From assembly GCF_019059575.1 (NCBI RefSeq), contig NW_024881521.1, forward strand, positions 601,297-665,296: a stretch of DNA of 64,000 bases. The letters run 5' to 3'. This DNA is from Amphibalanus amphitrite (lineage: Eukaryota). A program made the translations under genes and the position numbers. Below are positions 1 through 49,560 of the stretch, in pieces (within the stretch, counting starts at the first letter, position 1; each line of letters opens with the position of its first letter). The notes below the pieces were generated by a model. It was not told where the DNA came from. It did not search any database and saw nothing but the letters and a program-made list of their open reading frames with translations.

Positions 1-440
1 AACGTGTCCCGCGGCGCGCCGTTTGCACGATTTCAATTCCTGTTGTCCGATATATTTCGGTAAATGATGTTATTATCGGCCTGCTCAGCCGGCCTGTCAC
101 TATCCCGATGTATTATGCATACGGGCTGCATACCAGTGAGCTCCAATCGGGGCCGCCGGGGCGGGGCGCCGACAGTACATCCCGAGAGAGGTCCTCGGTG
201 CGGTGAGACGCCGCCGCCGCCGCCGCCCTGCTGACTGCTCAGGGACCGGCATGGATTAATATTGGAGTTGCAATCGGGGAATACTGTCGAGTACTACACC
301 GTGCCATCGCCGGTCAACTAGTGTGAGTCAGATGGGTGTAGTTAGGACTTAGGGGAGAATAGGGCGTCCTTTTCTTTATGCGAAGAGAGATGATTCCCTC
401 CTCGATTCACCAATGACACTCCCCTCCCCCTGATCCTCAG

Positions 441-540
441 GTGACCGGTGTGGTGGGTCGCGCCGAGCTGCTGTCTTCTGTCTTCTTTCTGGCTGCCTTC
501 ATGGCCTATGCTCGGGCTGCCTCCGCACGACAAACGACAG
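441..540 (+). CDS. TMTC-family (TPR O-mannosyltransferase-like) exon; encodes ..VTGVVGRAELLSSVFFLAAFMAYARAASARQTT
   Basis: cctcag acceptor at 438-440, gtacga donor at 541; peptide matches conserved TMTC motif (VVGRAELLSA.FFL.AFL.Y); ends phase 1. Confidence 0.7.
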
Positions 541-1977
541 GTACGAACATAACCAACCGTGTGCGGCAGCTCCTTATGATTCCCAGCGGTCCGTCACGTG
601 TATATCAGACACATATATATTCGTGTTGTAAACCGCACACGGTATGCATAGGTCCTCCGTAACGTATCTCCTCTCAGTAAATGATGCGACTATCAAACGA
701 GACCATTCCATTGCTCTCATCATAACGCAATTGGTGGTGTTGGATACATGTGCCTTCCCCTGGTGTTCCGTCGCTCCATAGCCTCGGCGCCCATCCCCCG
801 GCAGTTACTTCTCGTGTTCCTTCACTCGAACTGCCCTCCATCTGTCCAAAAAGTGACATCGAGCCGTGTCCCGCCCGGTTGTCACTCGACCAGCTTTCAA
901 TGTGCACCTCGTGTCTGTGTGAGAGATGCTGTTCAGGGCTGGTCGGCTGTAATGGACGGATGATGTTGATGGTGTTCGACGCAGTCACCGCTGGTGATGG
1001 CACGTATGTCACCTGGTGACCGCCACCGTATGGAGACGAGTTGGGGAAGATATGTATCATGCGACTGTCTCAATACGGAAACAGTTGTGTCATGACTTGC
1101 TAGCAGGTTGATCGGACGCGCACTGTGTATTACCGGACAGTGGCTGTAAATATTATTATCGATCACTTTGGATGACTCCTTGACCTTCATGAGATTCTAG
1201 AGCTCGTAATCATGCACTTGTGTTTTTGGTGAGTGAGCCACTGATGTGCGACAGTACCTATGTCATCCTCTCGCGTCAGTCTGACGTCTGTGCCGTGCTC
1301 GTGTTATCAATTAAATCCGACTAATTAGTGATGTTCACGAGTCGGTGGCGGCGTAAGCAGATTGCAAGCGATCCTCTCTAGGCCCCATGCCCAGGTATCC
1401 TGTGTTGAACGTGCTTACAAACATGTACAAGGTCACTTTGGGAGCCCCGCTCTAAACTGGCCGGGCCGGGCGCCACGTATGGGCGGCCGGTCCCGACCCA
1501 GCCGCGCTCCTGCTCCGCGGATTAGTGTTTTCATGGCGCCTAATCTGATTTGGAAATTCAAAGCAGATAAGGTGTCTGTGCGGGGTCGTGTAGGCGAGAC
1601 TAGACCGGAGTGGGGCCCGCGGAATGTGCTGGCTGGGCTGCATCAGAGGAACTTGACTGAATGCAAACATGTGCAGCTCCTCAGGATAGTAGGAACTGGT
1701 AAGGGTGGCATGCCGGAAAGTGCAGAGGAAGAGAAAATAGACAGCCAAAGGAAACGCCGGATGTAATTAGGTGCGGAATGGAACATTCAACGTGAGGAAA
1801 CCAGCATTTAATGCTTAAAAAATACTTTTTCCAATCTGTTGTTACACTGCTCGCAACTGATAGGTATTCACGACTGTATGTATTGACTTTTTTTTTTTTT
1901 TGCTCTCTCAGACTGGCGGTGACTTGGGAGGACTGTGTTGTAGTGTGTAACATGTCCGTTACGTTGTGTTTCCTCAG

Positions 1978-2093
1978 ACTGGCGCTGGCTGGGGACGACA
2001 GTGCTGTGTATCACAGCAGCCATGTTGTGCAAGGAGCAGGGCATCACAGTGGTCGGCGTCTGCGGCGTCTACGAAGTCTTCGTTGTCAGAAAG
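1978..2093 (+). CDS. TMTC-family exon (..WRWLGTTVLCITAAMLCKEQGITVVGVCGVYEVFVVRK)
   Basis: tcctcag acceptor, aag|gtgagtc donor; phase-consistent with previous exon; MLCKEQGITV motif typical of TMTC. Confidence 0.7.
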
Positions 2094-2752
2094 GTGAGTC
2101 CGTAAAACATCTGGAAGAAAAATCTCAGCATTCTATGGTGTTGTAACGGTAAATGATACTAACCATTATTAGTTCCTGCTCTCTTTTCCTGCTCCCCGAC
2201 TCGACTTTTTACGCTGTTATCCTGAGTCTAAGCCACTGACGTTCCTCTCACTACTCGCAGTAAAGTACACATTTCAAATTACTAAGGTCCCCGATCCTGT
2301 CTGTATGTCGGAGTTGTCCGGCCCAGATCAGTTCAGTTGTCCGGCCCAGATCAGCTGGGAGCACGGCGGCTCAGCGGCCGAGCCACCGCCCTGATTGGGG
2401 CTTGCCGCACGTCCCTCTGTAATTGGCCGGTGTCGCCCGGGCGTGGCACTAAATCGCCGGCTCTAGACACTCTGTCACCGCGGCTCACGACAGACAGAGT
2501 TCCGAACTGGCCGGATCATCGCGGACTAGTGGAGAGCGCTGGTGCTGCTCTGTATTTGAAGCGCGAGACATGGCTAATTTCCCAGCTGAGCGTTGTTACC
2601 CGTCTGTAGTGTCTAGTGTCGTCATGCGCTTGTGACCGATCGTGACCCTATCGTTTGTGAGTGGTGACCTTAGTGAGAATCTCAATGACTTAAGATCTAT
2701 AAGCCCTCCTGTGACCCTGTATGACCCCATGTCCCCGTGCGTGCTGTTCCAG

Positions 2753-2928
2753 CTGCGCCTGAATTCTCTCCGGGCCGCTGTGGCCGGACTGAGCAGGGCC
2801 GGTAAGGCTCAGCCGCCGGACTGGCTGGGTGCCACCGTCGGCCGGCTGGCTACACTCGCCGTGGCCACCCTGTGTCTGCTCATCGGACGGGTGAAGATCA
2901 TGGGGGCACAGCTGCCCGTGTTTACTAG
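2753..2928 (+). CDS. TMTC-family exon (LRLNSLRAAVAGLSRAGKAQPPDWLGATVGRLATLAVATLCLLIGRVKIMGAQLPVFT)
   Basis: ttccag acceptor, ag|gttagt donor, phase 0 to 2; RAKIMGAQLPVFT is a conserved TMTC motif. Confidence 0.7.
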
Positions 2929-3243
2929 GTTAGTGGTCTACTGATTGTTCGTCGGCTGGTTTGGGGTTGTGTCGGCCGTCACTTTGATTAGAATTGAGAA
3001 TATTTGTTTGATGAATTTGTGAATGCTGACGGACGTTCTGTTGCTGCTAGGAGATATCATATGGAATATGTCTAGGGAAATATTTTGATCGTCCCACTTT
3101 TCAGCGTTGTTTAATCTGAAGTCTTTAATCCGAAGTCTAGCTTGCACGTTTATTTTAGTCAATCTCTATCGTCGCTTACGCCGTTGCGATAGCTCCACCT
3201 AGCCTGACCTGACCTGACCTGACCCTACCGCCTCTCTCCCCAG

Positions 3244-3496
3244 GTTCGACAACCCGGCGTCCACGTCTGACACGGCGACCCGGTGGCTGACCTACAACTA
3301 CCTGTTGGGTCTGAACACGGCCCTACTACTGGCTCCCGAGCCGCTCTGCTGTGACTGGACCATGGGCACCGTGCCGCTGCTGACATCTATCGGTGACCCG
3401 CGCAACCTGGCCACCCTGGCGACCTATGCTGGGCTGGCACTGCTGGTGTGGCGCGCCCTGGCCTCAGAGGATCGTGGATCCGATGTGGTTATCATG
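3244..3496 (+). CDS. TMTC-family exon (RFDNPASTSDTATRWLTYNYLLGLNTALLLAPEPLCCDWTMGTVPLLTSIGDPRNLATLATYAGLALLVWRALASEDRGSDVVIM)
   Basis: ccccag acceptor, atg|gtgaga donor; completes AG+G=Arg from previous exon; FDNPA..DWTMG..DPRNLAT is TMTC-like. Confidence 0.75.
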
Positions 3497-4166
3497 GTGA
3501 GAGCTGGGGATAGTTGTCGGGAAGGGAGAAGGGTGATCATAGCTAAGGTTTGCCCTCGGGTGGGTACTCGGTAGTAGGTGAAATGTGGATTGACTCGGTC
3601 AAAGTTTGTCCGTGTTTGTTGGGTAAGTGCTGTGGGGACGCTATGAAGACACTGAGTGAGTTATTTCAGCGGCGCTAGCGGAAACTTGTCACTGGTGATC
3701 TGATACCGGGGTAGTATGTCAGCGTGACCGACAGTCACTTGGCAGAGTTGTCGGGACCTTCCGCTGCTTTGTCGGTATGGTGACTGGACAGTCCATGCGT
3801 CAGCTAGTGTCATTCCTTCCTCAACATGTCAGGGTTTGCTCCCAGGCGGTCAACGCGGTTAGGCTCCCACGGCTCATCCAGTGTCCCACCAGCCAATAAT
3901 GAAATTGATTGACGATTTCAGCCATGGGAGGATTAGTGATTACTGAATGTTCTACCCTGTGGGAACTAATAATTCCGGGAACTAGCGCATGGTGCTTCTC
4001 AGTTCCCCATACTATTTAAAATTTAGGAGGGAGCCGGGAGACCTACAGACTGGAGCAACTCCCAGTAACGTGGACGGCTGTTGCGACGGTTGTGAACTGT
4101 GAGGTGGGATTCATTTTATCACAGTCTGCGGCACGCACCTAACGGTCTGATCCACCGGAGGAGGGG

Positions 4167-4232
4167 GGAATCGGTCCTGGTTTGGGGAATCGGTCCTGGT
4201 TTGGGGAATCGGTCCTGGTTTGGGGAATCGGT
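4167..4232. repeat. tandem ~20-bp repeat (ggggaatcggtcctggtttg) x4, intronic
   Basis: direct reading of sequence. Confidence 0.9.
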
Positions 4233-4882
4233 CCCGGTCCTGGCCTGACAGCTGGTCTGGTCCGCTAGTGACTGCTGGTGTTGAGGGGAGATAAGACTGC
4301 TGTTGGCAGCTGCCCGGGTGATATCACTGTCACAGACGTGTCAGTGCCTCCCTATCGTCCGATCGTCTGCGGTTGGTGCGGTCAGCTCGGTATTACCGGG
4401 CCGAATATCGCCTCACCAACTGACCGTCTGAGTGGGCTCCAGTTGGACCGAGTACCGTCTCAGATTGGTCCGCGGTGAGGTGGCAGGACGGCTGCGGGAT
4501 TAGTTCCGTACCGGTTATTGATCGGGTGGTGATGGCTGGGGTTCGGTAGTCACTGCTGAGCGAGGCTTGTGAATGATCCGTCCTGCCGTGGACGGCGACG
4601 AAGACGGTGTTATCACCATGGTTATGTGACCCAGATGTACTTGGTCAAAATGTTCCTGCTCGCCTGGCATCGCGTTGCTTTGGTATCGTGTCGTCTAGCG
4701 ACAGTATTTTTTTTAGGCTGATCGAAATTTATAGTAGAGTTTTCCGTTTGGTGGTGATATGTCTTCCTCTCTAGTCTGGTGCTGGCGACTCTCTCCTGGC
4801 TAATAGCCTGTCCCCAGTGTGACTATGACCCCGAGTGTACTGTCTGAGTGTCGCTGTAATTGACTCCGTCCGTCTGTTTCAG

Positions 4883-5031
4883 AGTCTGGCTCTGGTGGCA
4901 CTGCCGTTCCTGCCCGCCTCCAACCTGTTCTTCCCGGTGGGGTTCGTCGTGGCCGAGCGGGTCCTCTACATGCCCTCCATGGGCTTCTGCCTGCTAGTGG
5001 CCGCGGGCTGTCAGCGGCTGGTACAGACCGG
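4883..5031 (+). CDS. TMTC-family exon ([49 protein letters not shown])
   Basis: tttcag acceptor, gg|gtgagt donor; in-frame ORF track 4835..5035; AERVLYMPS motif conserved in TMTC. Confidence 0.7.
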
Positions 5032-5876
5032 GTGAGTACAGCTGACGTTCGGCCCCGCTGCACTGGTTAGCTGGTGGTGACCGGCCGGCCGGGTCCCTGT
5101 GTTTGAACTCGGCGGCGGCCAGCGGCCCTCTGTCCAATTAGCCCCCTGTTTGCCGTTCTCTCTGTCGGGCTGTGTGTCTGTTTGTCTGGGTGTGGGAGGA
5201 TGACAGACGGTCTGTCCGCTTCCTGTTGCCCGGCCGCGCCATTAACCACTCAACCCAGCCCACTACCGATTAAATTCCGCACGACCAAACCCAGCTCTGC
5301 TCTCGTCCATTTGCGGCAGTGCTCGGTCACAGAGCGTCACCGAGCGGTGTAGAGTGCACTCCGTTAATAAGTCACCGCGTCACCGCAGTCGGCGTGTCAC
5401 GTGCGTCGGAAACGACCCCCGCGCGGCCCATTCGTCCCGTCACTGTCCGACCCCCCCCCCCCCCCTCTCTCTACTGTCGCCCCTCAGCTGAACGGGCCGA
5501 TGGGATGATTTGTCGTCGCGCTAGTATCCCGCTGCCGGTAGTAAACTTGGGTATTCGGTGGTATTTTTGGACTCGAGTTGCCAAGAACCCGGAGGTCCAT
5601 CGGGATTCTTCTGGTGCAATGACTGGCCATAAGCGTCTCAAGAGCCCAATTTATCCAATATCGTTGATGGACGAATCCGCGAGATTGACTTACAATTCAG
5701 TATACTCGGATACTGTCAAAGTGGTAGCGCTTTCAGAGCCATTTCATTTAATAATCGTTTAGGACATACCCCATTACGTCTCTGCAGACCTCTTTTTCTT
5801 TGGTTATTTCAGCAGAACTGTTTAACGTGGGTAGTTCCTTGTGCACTGACCCCATTATCATCCATTCTCTCTCCAG

Positions 5877-6098
5877 TCGTCACCGGACGGCTGTCTGGCT
5901 CGGAATGTCCGTTCTGCTGATATCACACGGTCTGAAGACCCACTGGCGTAACTGGGACTGGAGGGACGAGTACTCCATCTTCACAGCCGGCCTGCGCGTC
6001 AACAGGAACAACGCCAAGCTGTATAACAACGTGGGCCACGCGCTGGAGGGCCGGCAGGAGTACGAGCGGGCGCTGGTCTTCTTCCAGCATGCCGTCAG
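5877..6098 (+). CDS. TMTC-family exon, first TPR region (..RHRTAVWLGMSVLLISHGLKTHWRNWDWRDEYSIFTAGLRVNRNNAKLYNNVGHALEGRQEYERALVFFQHAV)
   Basis: ctccag acceptor, cag|gtagga donor; ORF track 5800..6102; phase-consistent. Confidence 0.7.
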
Positions 6099-6963
6099 GT
6101 AGGAATCGTGCCAATGGGGCTGGGTCGCTGCGGATAGGGGATGGGGGGGGGGGTGGACTTGACTGATAGGAGTTGGAAAGTTCACAATGTGATGGATTGG
6201 CTCGTCTTTTATCACGACAGCCTGCCATGAGTGGTTTGAGTCGTAGTCGCTCGCTGAATCGGCCATTTGTCGCTCGCGTTGTGAGTTGCGCCGCTACTGC
6301 GCTCCGCTCTGGCCGTTCGTTTTCATTGAGTCGGAGCGGCGGGCGCGAATATTGCCGAATGAATGGGCGGCCGACAGTGACAAACGGAAACCGATGTGCC
6401 GAATCCCGGCTCGTTGTGATCCAATGCAACACGACGTCGGCGCCGCTGGACCGAAACCATGAATAATCAATGGGTGGCCACATGCATATGCATCATGGTT
6501 TGGCCCATTTCGGCTCGGCGCTGCGACCACTGCGCTGAGTAATGACGGTTGCCACCTCTGAAAACGGCCGCTCATTCACTGGCAGCACCGGGTGTCTGTC
6601 ATTGGTCGCCGCCAGTAATCGGGCACTGTAGTCAGGCATACTGGCCGCTGGTATGTCGGGGAGGGGAATAAGTGCATCGTCTGAATTAGTTATACACACA
6701 TGGGCGAATAGTTGGTTTACAAAGCGTCTCTCGGGCCCCTGTTCGACTGATTCCCGGTTGTGCAGTCTATTCGATGCGGTTGATTGTATTGAATTGTTAT
6801 TTGTGTGAACGCAGACCTATTATTTGAGAACTGTTGCTTTTCTCGATATCATAGTCCCTTGGATTGCCATCGTCGGCTGGTACTGTCTGTAATTGTACTG
6901 CATTTGTACCAGACGATACGGAGACCTATAATTTGTAACGCCGCTCTCGTCCTTCCGTTACAG

Positions 6964-7057
6964 AGTGCAGGAGGACGATATCGGAGCGCATATTAACGTG
7001 GGCCGGACCTACACCAGTCTGCATATGTACGACAAGGCCGAACAGGCGTATCGCACG
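6964..7057 (+). CDS. TMTC-family exon (RVQEDDIGAHINVGRTYTSLHMYDKAEQAYRT), TPR
   Basis: gttacag acceptor, acg|gtaagt donor; phase-consistent. Confidence 0.65.
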
Positions 7058-8358
7058 GTAAGTTCGATCAACTAAGACCGACCGTGGAAGGAGGCGGTGG
7101 GCTGTTCATAGTTTGTCACCATGCTGATTGCTGGGTCTGGGCGGGGTGGACGTGGGGGGTGGGGTCACTCAACCCAGTACTCTTGGGCTCTGGGCGTTAA
7201 ACTCACAATGATGGGCTGTGAGCTAGATGTGGACAGAACGTTGGTGCGAGTCTAAAAGTGGCGCCGGCGTCCCAGATTTCCGAGCTCAGCCTGCGATCCG
7301 CGTTGAAACTTTGGGCGTATCTGAGACAGATCCCGGAGCCGATTAAAGCGACTGCGCCGGCTGCAGCGGCCCGGGTCCCGTATCTCGGCAGCTGGGTCTA
7401 GGAACTGAGCCTCCCCGCCTCTCACCCGGGGCAGACTCGTGGCCGGTCCAAAAGCAGTGGAGCGAATCTCTCCCCCCCCCCCCCCCCATTCCTGACTGAA
7501 GTTTGGTCCAACCGGCCATCCTCAGATGTCCACAGTACATTGACGCCCGCATTGAGATATCGTCAGAAAACTGCCTCGGGTGGCTGACTGCGCAGGGATT
7601 CCTGAGACTCGGACCCGCGAGTTGCCCCTTCCCCACGGCGGTACCCCCACCTCCCCTCCCGCCCCGTTCCTCGGGCGGTGGCCCTGGAGACAGACAGCCG
7701 CGGGTGGTGATTTCAAAGTTGAATGGACGACCACCGATGCCGAGTTTACAGTGTCTTGCTTGGCTGTATTTGCAATGTCAGCTGGGCTCATCACACTATA
7801 TTTGTAACTGGCGCTGGGCATTCATTGCCGGTGGAAGGCCCTACGTAGTTTGCTACAACGGGTCTCTAATAAACGGGTACTTTGCTCAATGACGGATACG
7901 GCGTTAGTGCTTTCCCACTTAAGTAAATCAAAATTAGATATATGTAGCAGCAAAATTATTTGTGGCGTTGATCAGGGTCGTATCGTTGACAATGTCCTCA
8001 TAGTTATATCATAGGTTATTCCGCCATCTCTCGTCCCGGGTAACGGTATAGTAGGCACGCCGAGCTACTCTTCGCCGCGGTTTGTGGTCGTACCGTGCTA
8101 ACTCTGAGCTACAACACGGACGTAAAGTTCTGTAGGTGATGGAACGGCAAGCCGGCGCGGCTGAGGGATGGCTCCAATTTGGTCCGGATTGGTGGCGCCG
8201 GACTGAAGGCTGATCCATCACTGGACGCGCGGCGGTCGGAGCGTGTGCTGCCAATGTGTGTTCAGTGACCGGAAGTTTGTTTTTAGTTTTAGTGTGATTA
8301 GTATTCCTATCTGGTGTTCCCTGCAACAGTGTGTGACTTGCCCCTCTCCTTTTCACAG

Positions 8359-8649
8359 GCGAAGTCGCTGCTGCCTCGCGCCCGGCCCGGCCAAGTGTAC
8401 CAGGCACGTATCGCGCCCAACCACCTGAACGTGTTTCTGAACCTGGCGAACCTCCTGGCGCGCAACCACAGCCGCCTGGAGGAGGCGGACGCTCTCTACC
8501 GACAGGCGATCGGCATGAGGGCCGACTACACTCAGGCCTACATCAACAGGGGTGATGTGCTCATCAAGCTGAACCGTACACAGGAGGCGCGCCGGGTCTA
8601 TGAGACGGCGCTCACATACGATAGCCACAACCCGGACATCTACTATAAC
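8359..8649 (+). CDS. TMTC-family exon, TPRs (AKSLLPRARPGQVYQARIAPNHLNVFLNLANLLARNHSRLEEADALYRQAIGMRADYTQAYINRGDVLIKLNRTQEARRVYETALTYDSHNPDIYYN)
   Basis: tttcacag acceptor, aac|gtgagt donor; 97 codons in frame (ORF 8314..8673). Confidence 0.75.
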
Positions 8650-9705
8650 GTGAGTCAACGGGTCTGTCGGTGATACATTGATCAATGGGTGTTGCTGATT
8701 TTCCCGGCCTCTTCTTTTTCATCAGTCATTTTCCGTGAGTCAGTCCGTTGTTCATTTAGTCGGGTAGTTATTTCAGCCAACCGGTGAGCTAGCCTGCCAG
8801 TCATTCACCGTGTCATTTACCTACCCATTCCCGGCGGCCCAACCCCACCCCTCCATATTCTGGCTGTTGGAGCCTGTTGTGGCTGGGGTTATGTAGACAG
8901 TATACACACTGTCGTTGCGGCGTTCGGTCAGTTGCCGGGCGGTGTCCGGTGGTAGTATTTCCTTTACCACCCTGTTGTGTGCAGTGTGGGCCGATGGCCT
9001 GTCGGCCCGCGATACGGCGTCGGGCGCCGTGTTACCATCCGGGCCGCCATGGCGACTGGGACGGGGTGTGGGGGCCGCCGACCATCCGATTCCCGAGACA
9101 AGGATGTGAGATGGGGTGGCCGCCTGGCGCACACGGCGTGGGCTTATCTTCACTGACGGGCTGTGTGCCAGACGCTATGTTGTGTAGCTCGCAACAGAAC
9201 AAAACGTGATTGATTAGTAAACGTAATGATAACATCCTCCTCTCCGTCTTCGCTTCTTCCTGGGCTCATTTCGCTGTGAAACTACCGCAGTATTTGGTTG
9301 TCTAACACACCATCTCCTCTCCCTTCCTCAGCTGGGCGTGGTGTGTCTGGAGCAGGGCCTCCAGGCCCAGGGACTGGAGTTGTATGCTCTAACACCCCTC
9401 CCTCCCCCTTCTCTCCTCTCTGTTACAGCTGGGCGTGGTGTGTCTGGAGCAGGGCCTCCAGGCCCAGGAACTGGAGTTGCGTACTCTAACACCCCTCCCC
9501 CTCTCTCCTCTGTTACAGCTGGGCGTGGTGTGTCTGGAGCAGGGCCTCCAGGCCGAGGAACTGGAGTTGTATGCTCTAACACCCCTCCCTCCCCCTTCTC
9601 TCCTCTCTGTTACAGCTGGGCGTGGTGTGTCTGGAGCAGGGCCTCCAGGCCCAGGAACTGGAGTTGCGTACTCTAACACCCCTCCCCCGCTCTCCTCTAT
9701 TGCAG

Positions 9706-9987
9706 CTGGGCGTGGTGTGTCTGGAGCAGGGCCTCCAGGCCGAGGCGCAGGCCTACCTGGACAGAGCGCTCGAGCACGACCCCGACCACCAGCAGGCGCT
9801 GCTCAACTCGGCGGTGATTATCCAGGAGGAGGGGCCCCCGGAGCGGCGGCCGCTCGCCTACCAGCGGCTCCACCGGCTCATCGCGCTCCGACCGTCGGCC
9901 GTCGGACTCGACAGGGTCTACTTCAACCTGGGCATGCTGGCCATGGACGACCACGACCTGGTGCCCGCCGAGGCCTGGCTCAAAAAG
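9706..9987 (+). CDS. TMTC-family exon, TPRs (LGVVCLEQGLQAEAQAYLDRALEHDPDHQQALLNSAVIIQEEGPPERRPLAYQRLHRLIALRPSAVGLDRVYFNLGMLAMDDHDLVPAEAWLKK)
   Basis: ttgcag acceptor at 9700-9705, aag|gtgagt donor; this is the last of five tandem acceptor+exon-start copies, and which copy is used in vivo cannot be told from sequence. Confidence 0.65.
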
Positions 9988-10217
9988 GTGAGTAATGCGA
10001 GCCAAGGACTAGAGTGACTGTTCAAACTGTGACTGAGCTCATTTCGGCACCCCGCGTCCATCGTGTAAGTGGTTTAGCGGCGCGGGCTGGTCGGCCAAGC
10101 GGGCAGTTCGAAGTTGAGGTAGCCTTAGTGTTGATGCGTGCCTAGTATGCTCAGTTTCCTCTGTAAAGCCGCGCTGTGTGTTCTCAGTAGGCTGATTCCC
10201 GCCGGTCCCCTCTCCAG

Positions 10218-10412
10218 GCGGTGGAGGTGCGTCCCGAGTTCCGTTCGGCGCTGTTTAACCTGGCGCTGCTGCTGAGTGACGCCGGCCGGCCGCTGGAGGC
10301 CGTGCCCTTCCTCACCCGGCTGGTACAACATCACCCGGACCACGTCAAGGCGCTCATCCTGCTCGGAGACATCTACATCAACAACATCGAGGACCTGGAC
10401 GAGGCGCAAAAG
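10218..10412 (+). CDS. TMTC-family exon (AVEVRPEFRSALFNLALLLSDAGRPLEAVPFLTRLVQHHPDHVKALILLGDIYINNIEDLDEAQK)
   Basis: ctccag acceptor, aag|gtgggc donor; 65 codons. Confidence 0.7.
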
Positions 10413-10692
10413 GTGGGCTGCGTGGGTACGGCAAACCGGTAGGAGGCGTTCTCAGGCTGTCTATGGGTCCCGAATCGGCAGCTTGGTGGCGTGATCAAAA
10501 GTAATGCTGTATGGCTTAATGTATGGCTTAATGAGTGATCAACTATTGCTTGCGTTGCACTGTTTCCGTGGTCGGTCAGTTTTGAACGCCTGAGTGGTTA
10601 GCGGCCGGCGGCGGTGGCCGGTGGATGGCGCTCATTTCCCCCGCGCTCTATCGTTCATTCTCTTACCTGCTCCCTCGCTCTGTCGCCCGCAG

Positions 10693-10917
10693 TGTTACGA
10701 GCAGATTCTGCGCGTGGATCCGGATCACGTGCAGGGATTGCACAACCTCTGCGTAGTCCACGTGAAGCGGGACGACCTGGAGCGCGCCCAGCAGTGTCTG
10801 GAGCGGGCAGCTCGGCTGGCGCCCGACGAAGACTACATACAGCGACATCTACAGATTGTCCGAGCGCGCCGCCAGGCGGCCAAATCGGCAACTAGGCGGC
10901 CCGAGCCGGGCGCATAA
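10693..10917 (+). CDS. TMTC-family terminal coding exon (CYEQILRVDPDHVQGLHNLCVVHVKRDDLERAQQCLERAARLAPDEDYIQRHLQIVRARRQAAKSATRRPEPGA*)
   Basis: cccgcag acceptor; TAA stop at 10915-10917; matches ORF 10594..10917. Confidence 0.75.
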   Translation, partial: CYEQILRVDPDHVQGLHNLCVVHVKRDDLERAQQCLERAARLAPDEDYIQRHLQIVRARRQAAKSATRRPEPGA

Positions 10918-12159
10918 CAGCCGACCGTGGGTGTTGGCTGAACTCTTGGCGCTGTGATAACCCGCGACGCTCCCCGCCCGGGCCTGCGGTACTTTTCGCG
11001 TGTCTGAGACCGCGCGGGCCAGTGGTCGCCCCGCCGGCTCGGAGCGTCGTCCTGCTTTAATCTGTGTAAATCCGCCGGGCCCTGGGGGCATCGGCGGACG
11101 GTCATACGACATGGTATTGTCAGGAACTGTCCTCTGTGAACTCTGTGTCCTAATGACGAGCTGTAATGAGAGCGTTATCACCGGGCTATTTTGATGCTGT
11201 TGTGCTCAATATTTTATGTAAGCTTGCGAGATGATTGTTATTTCTGTGCGAACTGCGATACGTGTTGTGGTAGCACGGTTGACGTGTCGACTGCGGGTGC
11301 TTGTGACAACTGTTGTTCGGTATGGATTGGCACGGTGGTTTTTGTTGTGCACTGTAACAGGGTACATCAGATCAGGAGCTGGTCCCTGAGGGTGACTCCT
11401 CGGCTGGGCGCCGGACCCTGGAGGTCCCGCAGATCGGGCACCGAGGCGCGGCGGGCCCCGTCGGAGCCGATATTGACTGTGATAAAATACATACAGTATA
11501 CATTCCGCTTAATGTGTGGTTCGGGTGTGTGCCCCAGAAAATCCACGATTCTTCCAGTTCATCACATAAGATAAGGAACAACGTTGTATCTTCGCGAACA
11601 ATCAAAGCACAATCAACACACCGTGCACAGACACTCGATGCCGTGAAAGCTCAGGTACAAGCGAGGACGAAGCCGCTAGAGCGCCCGGACGAGCTATGGC
11701 TTTTCCGTCCGAAAGTCCGAATCGGGTGCGTTGATCACGGACGCAGCCGGGGCAACATGTGATGAGTGAGTGTGGTCCATATGGTGGACAAATCCAGGCA
11801 CAAGCGAAAACCCCGGGGATAGTCGGGTGGCAGTTATGAAAATGACATCGAATGCAACGTAATTGTTCAGTATGAGGCGCTACTTTGACAAGCCTGTCAT
11901 CGGTACATCAGAACCACCTCGGTATCAAATCTCACACAATAATCTCATGACGTTGGGCTTAGACAGAAGGTCTGAAGCACCTCTTCGCCAACTGATTCCG
12001 AACTTCAAGCACCGTCCGCGCTCCCAGCACAAAGTCCCGGGTCGAACACTCTCCACCTCGCGGCGCTACCCGCGTTACCTTCCACAGCTTACCAGTTTGT
12101 ACTGCAGGCTCCTCTCACACTCTGAGCCGCGGGGCGCCCGTGGCACGGACCGCGGGCCG

Positions 12160-12267
12160 TCACTGCTGCTGCCGAGCCTGTTCGCGCTGCTCGCGGGCCT
12201 CCTGCAGCTGCAGCGCGCGCTCATACTGCTCCTGCCACTGCTCTGGCTCCACCTCGTCACCCCAGAT
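12160..12267 (-). CDS. NSMCE3: NSMCE3 / MAGE-homology-domain protein, last coding exon (IWGDEVEPEQWQEQYERALQLQEAREQREQARQQQ*)
   Basis: rc translation; ccccacag acceptor; TGA stop at 12160-12162 (minus strand). Confidence 0.7.
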   Translation of the reverse strand: MWGDEVEPEQWQEQYERALQLQEAREQREQARQQQ

Positions 12268-12535
12268 CTGTGGGGAGGGGGGGGGGGAGACGGGACGATC
12301 AACGGCGCTCGCAGGGCAACTAGAATACATTTAGTGATATCGGTGATAATATACACACCCTCTTCGGGACTCTGGAGTTTCTCACTCAACTCCTCCCTCT
12401 AAGCGTCCCGCTTACGTAACTTCCCTTGTGTAGAGTTCCTAAATCAACCCACCACTCGTTAGCTTACCATTCATACTTCCATTACTTTCGAATGCTTCCC
12501 CAATTTCCGTTCACTCAGCTCGAAGAGTGTCTCAC

Positions 12536-12667
12536 CGTACAGACGAACTTGAGCAGGTCGACGGCGTCGACACCCACAGAAGCGGCGTCTCCCCAGAAGA
12601 ACCGTAGCACCGTGACACCCTTCACCACCTCCTCCTCTTTACGCAGGTAGCCGGCGCGACAAAACTC
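12536..12667 (-). CDS. NSMCE3: NSMCE3/MAGE-like exon (EFCRAGYLRKEEEVVKGVTVLRFFWGDAASVGVDAVDLLKFVCT)
   Basis: matches MAGE homology domain C-terminus (..YLEYRQVP..YEFLWGPRA..KMKVLEFVAK pattern); gacag acceptor, acg|gtgaga donor. Confidence 0.75.
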
Positions 12668-13031
12668 CTGTCGACGTCAGAAGCCAGTTAGTCAAATCAT
12701 AGCCGGCGCGACAGAAATCCTGTCGACGTTAGACAAACTACACATTATAGCTGTCGCGACAAAACTCCTGCCAGCGTCAAACACGAAAGATCATAGCCGG
12801 CGTGACAGAACTCCAGTAACACCTCAGTGAGGCGTTCAGCTGCCGTGACAACAGTCATATCAGTCACTTATCAGTCATCAGTCACACCAGTCATTACTCG
12901 TCAGCACGGTCCGCCACCCCTGGTAAAAACCTCGGTCATACGTTCCTGACTAGCCTAATGCACTTCTCACCGGCCTCATAATTAATGGTAGTGTGAAGAG
13001 GCTGACTAGCCTCACAGCCCCATTGACTTAC

Positions 13032-13120
13032 CTCGGTCACCAGTTTCCTCACGTTGCCGAAACACTCGTGCTTATGGTCCTTGTGGACGCCCAGCTTTGA
13101 CAGGAACCTCCACAGCGTAT
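13032..13120 (-). CDS. NSMCE3: NSMCE3/MAGE-like exon (D-TLWRFLSKLGVHKDHKHECFGNVRKLVTE)
   Basis: aligns with human NSMCE3 ..[29 protein letters not shown]; gggtag acceptor, gag|gtaagt donor. Confidence 0.75.
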
Positions 13121-13544
13121 CTACCCGGCGGAATAGGGACGGGGAATCGCTCCCGTTAGTCACACAAATACAGATCCACGGCGGCGCAGCACCAGCGCTC
13201 GGAGCTCAGACTTAAACTAATGAGATTACTGACGGAACCGGTCGTCATGTCGCTCTACCACAGCTGCGGGGAGCGCATCGGTTTCTGTGGCTCATCACCG
13301 CTCCGAACATGTCGGATTCAAAACCGCAGGGGTTCTGTCTATACCCGTTGCCACAGATCCTGATACCTGGAGACGCTAAGTTACACAGGGCCACCATACA
13401 GGACAATGATACTCTTTATTCTTTGATCATTGATTCTATTGTGATACGCAATTCTAACAGCAAAAATAACCCGCATCTGACAGATAACAATGCCACGTAC
13501 CGCGTACGTCCGTCCGCCGCAGTCGCTCTGATTTATCTACGTAC

Positions 13545-13722
13545 CCTCATCCACGCCGGCGTCCCCACTCATGAAGATGAGCGCCAGTATGGCGACGAGC
13601 AGGCCGTGCTTCTGAAGCTCGGACTCTGCGAGCAGTGGCGGCGCATTTTCCACCACGGGGAGCTGGTTAACTAGCAGCAGGTCCCGCTTGTTGGGCAACA
13701 CCTCCAGCGACATACCAAACAC
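13545..13722 (-). CDS. NSMCE3: NSMCE3/MAGE-like exon (VFGMSLEVLPNKRDLLLVNQLPVVENAPPLLAESELQKHGLLVAILALIFMSGDAGVDE)
   Basis: aligns with ..[42 protein letters not shown] of NSMCE3; ccccag acceptor, g|gtacgt donor. Confidence 0.75.
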
Positions 13723-13904
13723 CTGGGGATGACGATGTTAGAGTTAGCACGGCGGGGAGGGAGGGGTAGCTCAGCTGGATAAACCAGCGAAGGGTCCAGT
13801 GATGTCGGATAAGACTTACATTTAGTTAGGGAGAACGAACACTGGTAGCAACGGGAAGCGTACCAACATGTGCCTACAGTGAGAAAGCGAAGTGGGGAGG
13901 GCCG

Positions 13905-13945
13905 AAGGGAGGAGAGAGAGAGAGAGAGAGAGAAAAAGGGAGGGG

Positions 13946-14006
<61 letters not shown>

Positions 14007-14032
14007 GGGGGGAGAGAGAGAGAGAGAGAAAG
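13905..14032. repeat. (GA)n/(CT)n microsatellite, ~125 bp, in NSMCE3-like intron 1
   Basis: direct reading. Confidence 0.95.
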
Positions 14033-14141
14033 GGATGACACACAGGCATAAATCCCAATCTATTACGCCTCATCCGCTCCCCCCAGTTAGCTCAGTTCCC
14101 TACCCGGTCGGCCCAGAGAGGACACACGCCGCCCCACTCAC

Positions 14142-14489
14142 GTCTCTCAGTTTGACGTCGGCCGCCTGCAGCACCTGGTTCACGTAGCCGCCGTGCTGCG
14201 GCTCCAGCGCCAGGCGGCGCACCTTCTCTCGGCGCAGCGGCTCGCCGCGGCCGTGCGCCGCCAGCACGTAGCGCACCACGCGGGCGGCCAGCCGCTCCTC
14301 CTCGACCGGAGACAGGCGCCGCTGAGAGCGCCGCTGGGTCTGCGACTGCGACTGCGAGAGTGACTGCGACAGCGGCCCGTCCTGGCGGCGGAGAGGGAGT
14401 CGCACAGACGGGTTACAGGCGGTGAACGGGTTATCAGGCGGGGAACGGGAGTGACACATAGGTGTTATATGTGGGGGAACGGAAATCAC
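14142..14489 (-). CDS. NSMCE3: NSMCE3/MAGE-like first coding exon (..RLSPVEEERLAARVVRYVLAAHGRGEPLRREKVRRLALEPQHGGYVNQVLQAADVKLRD); start codon uncertain (ATG at 14489 or downstream ATG)
   Basis: ORF 14100..14489 read to gac|gtgagtgg donor; low-complexity SQ-rich N-terminus followed by MAGE winged-helix start. Confidence 0.55.
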
Positions 14490-14683
14490 ACAAAAGCGTT
14501 ACATAGGTATGGGGAACGAGAAGCGTACATAAGCGTCACAGACGGGAAACGGATTTGAACATAGGGGTTATTGACAGGGAGCGGGATCATTTACCTTCAC
14601 AGGTTATACACGGGAAACGATAGCCGCACTCTTGGGTCACCCAGTGCCTGGGCCATTGGGACCGAGGCATCGTCCATAATATA

Positions 14684-20879: not shown

Positions 20880-21720
20880 TGGACTCTTAGGGTAAAGGGA
20901 TGTCATACATCTTGTTCTTCCAGAGTTTGTCCAGTCGCGCCTTGAATTGGTTCACCGACGTCGCTGACACCACAGAGTCTGGAAGTGTGTTCCAGTCGTT
21001 GACTATTCTGATACTAAAGGAGTTTCTGCTCACAAGTTTTCTAGCATGTGGTTTGCCCAGCTTCCATCTGTGTCCTCTTGTCCGGTCAGACTCGTTCAAT
21101 GTCAGAAACTTCTCCGGTGTCAGCGCCATGCCTCCGTGCAACAGCTGGTACGCGGTGATCATATCTCTTCGGCGGCGGCGGCAGAACAGTGAAGGCATTC
21201 CGAGGCTATGTAGTCTTTCTCGATATGGCAAGTGTCTCACGGACGAGACCATTCGGGTCGCCCGGCGCTGAACTCGTTCCAGCCTCTTCTGGCTGCCTAT
21301 AGGTACTGAATGGTCCCCATATCGTGTTACCGTATTCCAACAACGGCCTGACCATAGCATTAAAAAGCAATGGTAGCGTGGACTCGTTGATGTTCGCAAA
21401 AGAGCGTCTCAGTACAGCCAGGGTTTGACGAGCTTTTGACACGGCCGCTGATGCCTGTTTCTTGAAGTTCAGGTCGCTGTCGATCACGATCCCAAGGTCC
21501 TTTTCCTCGTCGCTCGCTTCAATCGGGGTACCGTGCAGCGTGTAGGTCAGGTTTGGATGGTGATGGCCAGTGTGCATTACCTTGCATTTCGCGACATTGA
21601 GCGGAAGCATCCATTTCCGAGACCACTCACCAAGCGCATCGATATCGGCTTGCAGGCCCACGTCATCCCGGTTGCCCACCATCCGACGGTAAATCTTCGT
21701 GTCGTCGGCGAAGAGCTTGC
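20880..21720 (-). mobile_element. 5'-truncated, frameshifted CR1/L2-like non-LTR retrotransposon fragment (RT C-terminal thumb plus tail)
   Basis: rc ORFs 21206..21682 and 20887..21399 encode ..FADDTKIY..GLQADIDALGEWSRKWMLPLNVAKCKVMH.. and ..LERVQRRATRMV..LPYRERL..RTRGH..RIVNDWNTLP, typical CR1/L2-clade RT 3' region. Confidence 0.85.
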
Positions 21721-22187
21721 ATCAAATTTGCATGCTGTTAAATGATTTTAAGCCTTTACCTACCTAACCTACCTACTTGAAGTTGCATATAACAGCAGCG
21801 AGAGGTACACAGACTATAATGCACAACATTGTATTACCTGACGACTGTCAGTGAGGTGGGGCTATGCCTAATTTATGATGTGATGCCTCTGCAGTTTTGC
21901 TGCTGTGTCAGGAAGCTGTTGCATATCTTATTTGGAGCTGTGCTAGCCTTACCTCAGTGCAGTGCTTATCGAGGTTATGGTGGCTGGTGCAACATGGCCA
22001 AAGATAATGGTCATTGGGACACAGCATGAGCACACTGCAGTCTGCTGTCCCCTCAGGAAGCTATTGGTCTTTTAGCACTCTTAGATATCTTCCAAGCTTT
22101 GGGGACCAAATTCAAGGCCACATTGAGGTTGGTTTTATTTTCTTAGTTTTCCTAGATGTATTCTCTGAGTAGAGGCATGTGATGCAT

Positions 22188-29756: not shown

Positions 29757-29942
29757 CATCACTGACCTGCTGCGGCTTTCCGAGCTTGTAGTGCGCCTCG
29801 GTCTCGTCTCTGGTGAGCAGGACGCAGTTCCAAGGCGTCCAGGGCTGTTCCACGTCCCAGCGGCAGAGCAGCAGCTCATAGAGGTCCGGATCGGCGCTCA
29901 GGCAGGACTGGCCGCCCCACAGCGACAGCACCAGGTGACGGA
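29757..29942 (-). CDS. IQ-motif gene exon (ESDFRHLVLSLWGGQSCLSADPDLYELLLCRWDVEQPWTPWNCVLLTRDETEAHYKLGKPQQ)
   Basis: tgttacag acceptor, cag|gtcagt donor; ORF 29614..29961. Confidence 0.65.
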
Positions 29943-30361
29943 AATCAGACTCCTGTAACACATGAAAGACAGAGGTGGTATGTCAGACAGGACTGACCGC
30001 CCCACAGCGACAGCACCAGGTGACGGAAGTCAGACTCCTGTAACACACAGACAGAGGTGGTATGTCAGACAGGACTGGCCGCCCCACAGCGACAGCACCA
30101 GGTGGCGGAAGTCAGACTCCTGTCACAGAAACAAATACATGTGTCAGACTCATTAACCTGTCCCATACCCAGATCATAAGTCACACGTAGGCCTCGCACA
30201 CACATGGGTAGCGAAAGTCGTACACCTTTCTCACACCGTATGTAGCGAGGAAAGACTTGCCAGTGACCAAACCCCACGCACGCTCCCCGTACTTCGACTG
30301 CAGGCTGTCCTCTCTCACATATACTAGAGTACCACTGACCCGTCAGTAATCCTCCGCTGAC

Positions 30362-32669: not shown

Positions 32670-32789
32670 CTGTTTGCGCCGTTCTGCGTCGTCCACAATC
32701 CACTGGAGCACGACATCCCGCTCCCTGGCCATCCGCTGTACCCGGCGACGGGCCAGCCAGCGGCGCCAGTACTTCTGTAGAAGAATCGC
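32670..32789 (-). CDS. IQ-motif exon (AILLQKYWRRWLARRRVQRMARERDVVLQWIVDDAERRKQ)
   Basis: IQxxxRGxxxR-like calmodulin-binding motif (LQKYWRRWLARRR); ccaccacag acceptor, cag|gtcaga donor. Confidence 0.65.
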
Positions 32790-32904
32790 CTGTGGTGGAG
32801 AGCGTGAATATCGTCAGACAGGGGAGTAACACGGGCCAACCAGCGGCGCCAGTATTTTTGTAGAACGATCGCCTGTGGTGGAGAGGGAACATCGTCAGAC
32901 AATT

Positions 32905-41243: not shown

Positions 41244-44200
41244 CAGTAGGCGGAACTATGGTCAAGCGTACCCATTTTCGGGAACGCATTTTCGTTCCCA
41301 TGTTTGGGAACGATAAACCCAAATATGGGAACGCCATGTAGGCATTATTTAAAACAAGAAAAAGAACCGTTAAATGACGTCCAAAAAAAAAAAAAAACGA
41401 TCGTGAACCGCCTGATATTTGTCCCAATATTGTTGGGAAAGAGTTTGATATTGTAAGGCCCATCGTAGTTTCAAATCGTTCCCCTATTTCTAAAGCAGTC
41501 CATCATCCGGGCCGCGAGCCCAAATTTGGGAACGCTCTCGTACACTGGCGCTGCAAGCGTTCCTTATTATGGGAACGGCGTACCCAAAATTGGGAACGAT
41601 TTCACCGACGCCTTTCAGGGGCTCTTTTCATTAACAAGCATCACGTCCAACGCCGCAAATTATTGTTAACGCAACAATCATCAGATGACCTTTCCGGCAA
41701 GACCGTCGCATGTTACGCCCGGTCTTCTGCGCTTTTATTCCCGTCGATCTCGCAGCGGGCACGCCCCCCTCTGCAGGATTACGTAGTTCACAACGCTCAG
41801 CGATGTTCAACAAGGTCTTCCATACCTATATCCACCGTCCGCGCCGAGGGTGGAGACATGTCAAGCACCTGTCTGTTTATCACCGATAGTTGACGAGCAC
41901 AAGGAAGTATCCAAAAATGGGAACGCTGAATATGTTACACCCTCAAAACACCTAGTCCCAATGAAAATCTAGTTTTTTCCTTTCTTGATGGGTGTAAGTG
42001 GCAAAAGGCCTGGTAGGATGGGCACGAGGAATGATCGAGATCAGCATAAAAATTATAAATAAGCCACACAAAGCGACCTATATAAGAGAAATTCCCCCAA
42101 AACGATCGTGCTTAGAAACACGGAAGACAAAAATCACGCTCATGACGCTCCTTATAAAACAACGCTTAAAGGGACTGTCCCACCTTAACATTAGATTTGA
42201 GTTGAGATAGCCATCTTGATGGACGTTCTTTGAAAATCAGTGCCGTGAAAACCGTTTCTCCAGCAATTACTTCATCGCAAAGAAATTTGAGTTTGATTTT
42301 GACATCTGTGCAAATAAGTGCCACAATGTATTGGTATAGGCACTTAAATCTGATGACGTCATCAGGCTTTCGAACGTCCGTTAAATGTTTGACTAAAACG
42401 TTTTGTAGCACGCGGTGGTATATGCTGCGTTGCGCGCAACAAATGCCGCACTTTTAAATAAAGTCGCTAGGAACAGCGGAGATCCCAAAAAGTAAACAAA
42501 AGTAAAAGTCTAATATCTTCAAAACCGGTGAATATTTTTCGGTGAAATTTGGTAGATATTCGTTTTCGCTCTTTCTGAACCGAGCGACATCACTTTCATG
42601 CCAATTCATAAACTTTTTTAAAGGTGGGAGGGTCCCTTTAACAGCTAGCATCCAAATAAAATATGTCTTTCCGGGATGATAAAATACAGCTGAATAATTT
42701 TAAACCACTGAAACCGAGTTTACAACAGTAGTTCGGTAAAATCACTGACGTTCCACGCGGTCGTGCGCCCCGACACCAAAAGTCAACAATATTACCTCGG
42801 GACTGTCCGCGTGTTCGCTTGCATATGTCAGCATCTGGTGTCGCTAGTATGAAACTTCATAACCAGGCGAAAATTATTGTACTTGACCTCAAAATGTAAA
42901 AAACGCTTCATTTTCCTTAAAATTGCAAGTTAAATGTAGTATAACCCATGTTTTCACCATTCCGTCATTTCAAAAAATCATTAAAAATATCATTCGACGG
43001 TCAATTTCCTTGTGCAACGGTCAGATTAAAGATAATTTTATAGAGACTTAGTACGTAACCGGACAAATCTTCGTATGGCAATTCTTCGTCGCGCAATTCC
43101 TCGTCCGCATTTCTTCGTCCGCAAATCTTCGTCGGCGCATTTATTCGTGTCGCATAACTTCGTCTCGCATTTCTTCGTAAGCGCAAATATTCGTAGCGCA
43201 TTTTTTCGTATCCGCATTTCTTCGTACGCGCATTTCTTCGTCAAGCATTTTTTCGTCCACGCATTTCTTCGTCTACGCAAATCTTCGTCCGCATTTCTTC
43301 GTCCACGCAAATCTTCGTCTGCGCATATCTTCGTCCGCAAATCTTCGTCCCCGCAAATCTTCGTCCGCAAATCTTCGTCCGCATTTTTTCGTCCACGCAT
43401 TTCTTCGTCTACGCAAATCTTCGTCCGCATTTCTTCGTCCAGCAAATCTTCGTCCCGGCAAATCTTCGTCCGCAAATCTTCGTCCGCCAAACTTCGTCCG
43501 CAAATCTTCGTCCGCAAATCTTCGTCCGCATTTTTCGTCCACGCATTTCTTCGTCCACGCAAATCTTCGTCCGCAAATCTTTGTCTGCGCATATTTTCGT
43601 CCGCAAACCTTTGTCTCCGCTATCTTCGTCTCCGCAAACATTCGTCCACAAATGTGGTTCAATAAAACCATGAAGAAATATCAGACCATCAAGTGATTGA
43701 CGAATTTAATGCATGGAATGGATGATCGAAACTTTTGAAGTCAGGTAGATGGGGTCTGTCCGGTGAAGCTATTGTATTTGGGAGCCGAGAATTGAAACAT
43801 TCCATATCATGTGTCCCGGACATTCTTTTTTCGCGGTCGATGAATGACAATACAATCTCTTGTACCCTCGCCGGCATAGGCGGCGGAACGGGGAGGGCAC
43901 CGGGGCACCGTTCCCCTCTTTAATTTTGGCCTTTTAACAGTAGCCCTATGGGCGTTGCATGGAAAGAATGGGACTAAAAGTCGGCAGTGCCGTGCCCCCC
44001 CCCCCCCCCTAATTGAATGTGTTCCGCCGCTACTGCTCGCCGGACCTATTTGTTTTCTACATATACGCCGGCCGAGGGGGGCGGGTACGACCCCCCCCCC
44101 CCCCCATCGCCGTTTCGCCACTGGTGGAGCTAGCGCGTCGCGGAAAAAACGAGCGTGTGCGCCGTTACGAGACGCAGAGGTTAATACCCGATTTTAAGGC

Positions 44201-49257: not shown

Positions 49258-49560
49258 CCTGATCAGGGCTGCGGAGTCGATGGATTTTCGGCGACTCCGA
49301 CTCCGACTCCGGCTTTCAAAAACCAGCTCCGACTCCGACTCCGACTCCGGGCAGAATTGTCAACTCCGACCGACTCCAACTCCCAACTCCGACTCTGCAG
49401 ACCTAGCAGGGCTGCGGAGTCGACAGATTTTCGGTGACTCCGACTCCGGCTCGGGTTTCTAAAATCGACTCCGACTCCGACTCCGACTCTGGTCACAACT
49501 GTCGACTCCGACCGACTCCGACTCCGACTCCGACTCCGCAGCCCTGCATATGATCATGAC
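49258..49560. repeat. two tandem ~150-bp units, each bounded by inverted CAGGGCTGCGGAGTCG / CGACTCCGCAGCCCTG termini and filled with (GACTCC)n hexamer repeats
   Basis: direct reading; hairpin-forming minisatellite or MITE pair. Confidence 0.8.

Follow-up and report, generated by a model that had tools for sequence, protein, structure and literature searches.

A variable tandem duplication across a 3' splice site in a Tmtc3-like gene of the striped acorn barnacle

Why should an intron carry, directly in front of its own 3' splice site, four further copies of that site together with the beginning of the exon that follows it? The question is raised by a 64,000-nt stretch of the genome of Amphibalanus amphitrite, the striped acorn barnacle (RefSeq assembly GCF_019059575.1, contig NW_024881521.1, positions 601,297 to 665,296 of the forward strand), which we call the window, and within it by one intron of a Tmtc3-like gene. 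The answer that we favor, with a probability of about three in four, is a minisatellite of variable copy number produced by tandem duplication across the 3' splice site of this one intron, with productive splicing directed to the acceptor nearest the exon. The array itself is real, non-random, and well delimited. It is most likely a commonplace variable minisatellite whose position is unusual and, as a structural polymorphism, most likely neutral to mildly deleterious, not an alternative-splicing device.

The host gene encodes XP_043246017.1 (P0008), annotated as ‘protein O-mannosyl-transferase Tmtc3-like isoform X1’ (860 aa), which was the top match in a protein search with the concatenated open frames of the window. 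Exact spliced mapping assigned residues 161-860 of this protein to 11 plus-strand exons within 441-10914 with 0 mismatches, and all junctions of the gene in the window are of the GT-AG type. Among the real introns in this part of the gene, the shortest measures 230 nt. The translation of the exon bordering the array matches TPR/TMTC3-type proteins. The predicted product has the arrangement expected of TMTC3, namely a DUF1736 transmembrane region followed by TPR repeats, with precomputed assignments to Pfam PF08409 and many TPR families, and by sequence membership it is a Tmtc3-like O-mannosyltransferase.

A single GT-AG join, 8649/9706, reproduces the annotated protein at this position. Five annotated products from three loci or assemblies (a 90% cluster containing RefSeq isoforms X1 and X2 on two contigs and GenBank entry KAF0307377.1) all read DIYYNLGVVCLEQGLQAEAQAYLD, with DIYYN joined to LGVVCLEQGLQAEAQAYLD, and therefore use the last acceptor (9706) in each case. 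The sequence derived from the repeats is absent from all of them (5/5), and the N-terminus is the sole difference between X1 and X2. As a separate observation, KAF0307377.1 (P0131, 871 aa) differs from the RefSeq models by a frameshift-like stretch, NGLTTWSMWRCTRSS, and by an 11-aa insertion (ARSQSVTERF); both probably reflect errors in the annotation or in its splice sites rather than biology.

The array is built on a 36-nt core, CTGGGCGTGGTGTGTCTGGAGCAGGGCCTCCAGGCC, that is present in five exact copies starting at 9332, 9429, 9519, 9616, and 9706. The core was found nowhere else in the 64-kb window on either strand with up to three mismatches allowed, and 100 shuffles yielded 0 matches. Tandem Repeats Finder (TRF) placed the array at 9329-9745 with a period of 97 (4.5 copies, 88% matches) and, with a better score, a period of 187 (2.2 copies, 97% matches, score 799; the scores of both periods span 644-799). 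A second, independent repeat finder returned the identical five in-register copies and the 187-nt higher-order period. The unit lengths of 97, 90, 97, and 90 nt correspond to an A-B-A-B higher-order repeat, in the order flank-copy1 / A-copy2 / B-copy3 / A-copy4 / B-exon, and the whole array of about 410 nt fills the last ~400 nt of the intron. Such head-to-tail units fall within the range of a minisatellite (about 10 to 100 bp or more). The features of the intron and of its two exons are as follows.

8359 to 8649, plus strand: upstream coding exon, ending in ...PDIYYN, with donor AAC/gtgagt at 8650 (phase 0, 8/9 consensus).
8650 to 9705, plus strand: annotated intron of 1056 nt, phase 0, between ...PDIYYN and LGVVCLEQG...
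9302 to 9371, plus strand: edge copy, with the native intron end gtCTAACac, a pyrimidine tract, and cctcag, followed by exon-like copy 1 at 9332-9371.
9331/9332, plus strand: pseudo-acceptor 1, cctcag, with a pyrimidine fraction of 0.90 over -23..-4.
9372 to 9468, plus strand: unit A1 (97 nt), with filler GACTGGAGTTG, a weak GT at 9382 (GTT/gtatgc), branch motif CTCTAACAC, a 27-nt pyrimidine run, and ttacag.
9382 to 9387 and again 9569 to 9574, plus strand: weak candidate internal donor GTATGC, with 4/9 matches to MAG/GTRAGT.
9428/9429, plus strand: pseudo-acceptor 2, in unit A1, followed by exon-like copy 2.
9469 to 9558, plus strand: unit B2 (90 nt), with AACTGGAGTTGCGTA, the branch motif, and a pyrimidine tract shortened by 7 nt relative to the A units.
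9518/9519, plus strand: pseudo-acceptor 3, in unit B2, followed by exon-like copy 3.
9559 to 9655, plus strand: unit A3 (97 nt), with a weak GT at 9569 and 1 substitution relative to A1.
9615/9616, plus strand: pseudo-acceptor 4, in unit A3, followed by exon-like copy 4.
9656 to 9705, plus strand: intronic part of unit B4, with branch motif CTCTAACAC, a pyrimidine tract, and attgcag; the whole unit covers 9656-9745.
9705/9706, plus strand: authentic (annotated) 3' splice site, in the terminal unit B4.
9706 to 9987, plus strand: authentic exon of 282 nt, encoding LGVVCLEQGLQAEAQAYLD...AWLKK in the TPR region; its first 40 nt are the fifth repeat copy.
9988, plus strand: strong donor AAG/gtgagt of the 282-nt exon.

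Every spacer holds CTCTAACACCCCTCCC, followed by a long pyrimidine run and CAG; this motif has four exact occurrences, all of them in the array, and none elsewhere in the window. Identity with the real exon extends over 40 nt, comprising the 36 exact positions and then SAGG (C/G-AGG). The following 11 nt, (A/G)ACTGGAGTTG, are non-exonic junction sequence, and the real exon continues at this point with CGCAGGCCTAC. Units of the same type are close to each other (1 substitution between A1 and A3, 3 between B2 and B4), while A and B units are separated by 4-5 substitutions and a 7-nt indel in the pyrimidine tract. The pyrimidine tract is most divergent in the edge copy; the most divergent copy usually stands at the edge of an array.

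An earlier note on this stretch, made from the letters alone, had described tandem copies of a full 3' splice-site module plus exon start upstream of an exon of a TMTC-family gene, and the five exact cores and the exact match of the exon to XP_043246017.1 bear it out on both counts. Its details need adjusting. Of the starts that it gave (9331, 9429, 9518, and 9614), 9429 stands and the others become 9332, 9519, and 9616, and its periods of 89-98 bp were right in rough range only. It had placed ttacag before each copy, which is true of copies 2-4 and not of copy 1 (cctcag); the real exon has ttgcag. It correctly saw an intact AG in each copy, all five being CAG acceptors. The ~36-50 nt of upstream exon sequence that it counted are confirmed over 40 nt and do not extend into the next 11. 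A GT after 50 nt in two copies, also reported there, is indeed present in copies 1 and 3 (GTT/gtatgc at 9382 and 9569); copies 2 and 4 have GTT/gcgtac.

Each unit thus contains the branch-point motif CTAAC, followed by a long pyrimidine tract and then by the CAG acceptor. The five acceptors read CAG/CTGGGC..., share 36 identical nucleotides and the same CTAAC, and have pyrimidine tracts that differ by few indels and substitutions. In the pseudo-acceptors the putative branch A lies 27-37 nt upstream of CAG/CT, and the pyrimidine fraction of 0.90 over -23..-4 applies to them as a group. The gene models point to productive use of 9706, and we infer that the pseudo-acceptors are silent or used unproductively. 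Several observations weigh against this interpretation. Judged by sequence, the pseudo-acceptors are at least equal to the authentic site, with a pyrimidine fraction of 0.90 versus 0.85 and uninterrupted pyrimidine runs of 16-27 nt versus 10 nt (the other nine acceptors of the gene have fractions of 0.70-0.85), and nothing in the sequence accounts for their silence. The annotation consists of protein-guided gene models, which would omit isoforms subject to nonsense-mediated decay (NMD). Neither these models nor short RNA-seq junction reads can resolve the acceptor, because all five sites share their first 36-40 exon bases. Finally, the five-copy state described here and the two-copy state described below rest on one assembly each.

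The second state of the locus is found on contig VIIS01000581.1 of assembly GCA_009805615.1 (L004), the source of KAF0307377.1, which is collinear with the window and aligns with positions 1-9468 at 97.0% identity with 39 gap openings and with 9613-12917 at 99.6%. Comparison of haplotypes for copy number, which the earlier note had suggested, gave two copies in this assembly versus five in the window, namely the flank copy and one 96-nt A-type unit that abuts the exon. The window allele is longer by ~280 nt, or three units (B, A, B). Copy 1 of L004 carries a private G>C, and 1 substitution and 1 indel separate the L004 A unit from A3. Because L004 has substitutions and flank indels of its own, it does not simply represent the window state collapsed by an assembler. 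The difference between the two is exactly the product expected of unequal exchange between identical cores. With copy number varying among alleles of the species (two alleles, from one assembly each), the array is a variable number of tandem repeats (VNTR).

Three marine-metagenome contigs encode Tmtc3-like exons of related barnacles or crustaceans (62-63% identity). All three have the same phase-0 intron position, YYN/LG, and one acceptor each, with introns of ~620 nt, ~55 nt, and, in the third, a truncated one. The single acceptor and the shared intron position indicate that the duplication is lineage-restricted and was laid on an old intron. Independently of the array, the homologous Tmtc3-like intron on a Tara metagenome contig (L001, 970-1190) holds an unrelated ~110-nt direct duplication of its own, well upstream of its single acceptor. 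Scans of metagenome contigs with the exact 36-mer and with a degenerate back-translation of LGVVCLEQG.LQA gave 0 matches each. Exact-product look-ups returned no record for XP_043246017.1, P0128, or the Pollicipes orthologue P0009, nor for two window open reading frames running through the array, of 131 aa and 112 aa. A protein search with a composite of all repeat-derived peptides, meant to detect transcripts spliced to upstream acceptors, returned two distant decapod TMTC fragments and missed P0008 itself, evidently because low-complexity words swamped the filter of 8000 candidates, and it carries no weight as a negative.

The array probably arose by three successive duplications, this being the simplest sequence. 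The duplicated segment, of about 90-97 bp, would have comprised the branch-point motif, the pyrimidine tract, the AG, and the first 40 nt of the exon. A single duplication reaching from the intron (around ...AACT...GTTGT.CTAACAC...) to exon position +40 would give the two-copy state seen in the other assembly. The new unit may then have been duplicated in turn and its copies diverged into the A and B types, after which the 187-nt A-B dimer as a whole would have been duplicated; the ~2% by which the two dimer copies now differ is close to the divergence between alleles of the locus. Alleles could shift between two and five copies by unequal exchange within the identical 36-40-nt cores. In the productive mRNA, the donor at 8650 would be joined to the last acceptor at 9706, and the four upstream copies would remain intronic as pseudo-acceptors.

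Several other origins or functions were considered for the array and set aside. A transposable element or dispersed repeat was rejected, as both the core and the spacer motif are confined to the array within the window. Structure is a poor explanation at either level: the array RNA folds no better than shuffled sequences (z = +1.7), and one unit as single-stranded DNA gave z = +0.3. No Rfam family was found anywhere in the window. We do not claim selection on the 36-nt core (0 variable sites versus ~5-7 events in ~50 spacer columns, copies 2-5), because the test is marginal (roughly p = 0.02-0.07 by our own estimate, depending on how a clustered TATG/CGTA change is counted) and confounded by slippage-prone pyrimidine tracts and possible gene conversion.

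The consequences of each splice choice were computed over the full downstream reading frame.

Acceptor 9706 (annotated), plus 0 nt: normal protein.
Acceptor 9616, plus 90 nt (plus 30 aa): in frame with no stop; adds LGVVCLEQGLQAQELELRTLTPLPRSPLLQ, a duplicated half-TPR and a proline-rich linker.
Acceptor 9519, plus 187 nt: frameshift, premature stop.
Acceptor 9429, plus 277 nt: frameshift, premature stop.
Acceptor 9332, plus 374 nt: frameshift, premature stop.

Pseudo-acceptor 4 (9616) is therefore the only one that keeps the frame, and its use would add 30 residues inside a TPR motif. The premature stops sit 154-506 nt upstream of the last exon junction, which is the classical configuration for NMD, and frameshifted transcripts from acceptors 1-3, if made, would be expected to be removed in this way.

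On this basis it could be argued that the pseudo-acceptors are appreciably used as decoys, that copy number tunes the amount of productive Tmtc3 mRNA through unproductive splicing with NMD or through intron retention, and that acceptor 4 provides an isoform with 30 additional residues. The completeness and strength of the pseudo-acceptor modules speak for such a role, as do the NMD-type stops behind acceptors 1-3 and the open frame behind acceptor 4, and the allelic difference in copy number would make any effect allele-specific. The annotated isoforms, however, differ at the N-terminus only. The distance to the downstream donor AAG/GTGAGT is 282 nt from the authentic acceptor and 372-656 nt from the pseudo-acceptors, and the purine fraction beyond +40 is 0.52 in the real exon versus 0.24-0.34 in the pseudo-exons, which run into the next pyrimidine tract; exon definition would thus favor the last acceptor on both donor distance and purine content. 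In addition, identical pseudo-sites are silent in the human F7 gene, the mirror image of the present case (PMC1557585), and a polymorphic, lineage-restricted array is improbable as an evolved regulator. We consider regulation by decoys unlikely. Its most explicit form, in which the array is a natural competition series of two to five copies with copy-number-dependent use of pseudo-acceptors, acting through NMD as an allele-specific dial on productive Tmtc3 mRNA and occasionally yielding the isoform with the TPR insertion of 30 aa, is more doubtful still. If true, the array would stand beside F7, on the side of the 3' splice site, as a model of spliceosome choice among identical sites.

An error of assembly, by over-expansion in the window or collapse in the other assembly, might seem a simpler account of the copy number or even of the array, given that each state is known from a single assembly and that assemblies are error-prone at tandem repeats. 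The units are nevertheless non-identical, with the substitutions and the distinct A and B types described above, as is typical of genuine diverged copies, and an array of ~410 nt fits easily into single long reads. The two-copy allele is set apart by its private G>C, by the 96-nt A unit abutting the exon, and by private flank indels, and its haplotype is 3% diverged upstream; the acceptor is duplicated even in this minimal allele. We therefore regard an artefact as very improbable.

The least credible proposal is that of the earlier note, which had seen the units as mini-exon/mini-intron cassettes, with 50-nt exons between the repeated AG and the GT of GTATGC that would be included or skipped to diversify or regulate the Tmtc3 mRNA. 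Copies 1 and 3 do possess AG...50 nt...GT, and some combinations restore the frame (50+52 = 102 nt; 3x50 = 150 nt; also all four). Against it, the GTT/GTATGC donor matches MAG/GTRAGT at 4/9 positions and the donors of the B units at 2/9 (GTT/GCGTAC) and 3/9 (TGC/GTACTC), compared with 7-9/9 for all ten real donors of the gene. The 47-nt unit intron (9382-9428) has CTAAC as its sole branch-type motif, with the branch A at intron position 11, the rest being an A-free pyrimidine tract up to ttacag. A donor-to-branch spacing of 11 nt is far below what arthropod and vertebrate spliceosomes tolerate. Inclusion of a single cassette of 50 or 52 nt would shift the frame and lead to a stop at least 53 codons past the junction, likewise 154 nt or more before the last exon junction, and the frame-restoring combinations are contrived and encode an unrelated peptide such as ...EFWAWCVWSRASRPRNWSC... 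None of the five annotated products contains such sequence, and the other allele has one spare copy only. A tandem array of alternative exons, cassette or mutually exclusive, fails on the same donors (4/9 at most), frameshifts, and premature stops. We therefore reject cassettes as a functional design, although rare aberrant products of this kind may occur.

The genomic background of the array is rich in repeats. Arrays of this kind are frequent in this genome, with about a dozen other minisatellites in the window; several, whose periods range over 19-142 nt, lie at 4165-4238, 12648-12814, 29898-30131, 32748-32901, 49264-49545, and 55171-55362. The congener A. improvisus is hyperdiverse (PMC8270832). 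Given the many minisatellites and the hyperdiverse congener, a variable minisatellite is unremarkable here, and it is the position that is unusual.

Other features of the window were noted in passing. A MAGE-domain gene lies tail-to-tail downstream of the Tmtc3-like gene (window ~11900-14500, minus strand; 51444-52201 on L004), as indicated by Pfam PF01454 on the L004 gene call and by an N-terminal-like open reading frame at 14100-14489, and a (GA)60 microsatellite occupies 13912-14029. A nearly perfect palindrome of ~2.7 kb at 43046-45739 has arms at ~43046-44297 and 44473-45739 that are 97-99% complementary around a loop of ~175 nt, with tandem subrepeats of 14-16/30 nt (CAAATCTTCGTCCG...) in the outer ~590 nt of the arms, and resembles a Foldback-type transposable element. 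Long open frames on the minus strand at 20890-21721 are reverse-transcriptase-like (...FADDTKIYR...) and probably represent a fragment of a non-LTR (long terminal repeat) retrotransposon. The sequence at 60385-61008 and in the region of 60-64 kb is very GC-rich (68%) with nested tandem repeats of 33/66/99 nt and possibly represents a repetitive coding exon.

The direct importance of the array is modest, since what varies is the structure of a single intron in a crustacean that is not a model organism. It does provide a natural experiment in which five nearly identical, complete 3' splice-site modules face a single donor and their number differs by allele. Any mis-splicing at the array would escape standard annotation.

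Comparable systems were sought among other cases of competing or duplicated splice sites. Classical cis-competition experiments cited in PMC1557585 used tandem 3' splice-site duplications engineered in globin minigenes. These were artificial two-copy constructs in mammalian cells, reportedly with conflicting outcomes. As would be the case here, near-identical tandem acceptors compete for one donor, and position and exon context, not the sequence of the site, decide; the barnacle array differs in being a natural five-copy allele in an arthropod. NAGNAG tandem acceptors likewise offer several AGs to one intron, but we rejected this comparison, since those acceptors are 3 nt apart, share a branch point and tract, and remain in frame, whereas the present ones are 90-97 nt apart, have their own motif and tract, and are mostly out of frame. 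For a natural VNTR on the acceptor side, the open-access literature yielded nothing specific with the terms tried. In humans, isolated cases are described in which duplication of an intron/exon junction causes disease.

Tandem duplication has also been linked to introns themselves. A 2007 study by Zhuo et al. (PNAS 104:882) is reportedly part of the literature on introns and tandem duplication. Introns created or multiplied by tandem arrays or duplications have been described (Hellsten et al. 2011, PMC3265369; Lehmann et al. 2010, PMC2891723), and NMD is expected to eliminate transcripts left unspliced or mis-spliced where the unit length is not divisible by three (PMC2891723). The Rogers AGGT tandem-duplication model resembles the barnacle case in that a local tandem duplication copies splice signals and the material between them can become an intron. 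In that model, however, an exonic AG/GT proto-splice site is duplicated and a novel intron position arises. Intron gain in this manner was rejected here: the YYN/LG position is common to the three relatives, the unit junction ...CAGG/RACT lacks AGGT, and the duplicated segment includes a pre-existing intron. No new intron position results, and the existing intron would merely be lengthened if the last acceptor is used.

The closest counterpart is the 37-bp VNTR in intron 7 (IVS7) of the human F7 gene (Borensztajn et al. 2006, PMC1557585). Its first unit straddles the boundary between exon 7 and intron 7, and on the intron side of the authentic donor lie 5-9 identical 5' pseudo-sites, which work when tested but are silent in vivo; the exon-proximal donor is always chosen. 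The minisatellite has served as an argument that splice sites are selected by position (scanning) (PMC1557585). In both genes a polymorphic minisatellite holds the authentic junction in its terminal unit (here B4, 9656-9745), pseudo-sites of the same sequence lie on the intron side, and the exon-proximal site is used, in the barnacle according to the annotation. In F7 it is the donor that is duplicated, in 5-9 copies of a 37-bp unit, and silence has been shown experimentally. The barnacle array is the acceptor-side mirror of that arrangement, with a branch point and tract in each of two to five copies of 90-97-bp units, and is known from sequence and gene models. It is thus a further case of a variable minisatellite spanning a splice junction, a type already described in F7.

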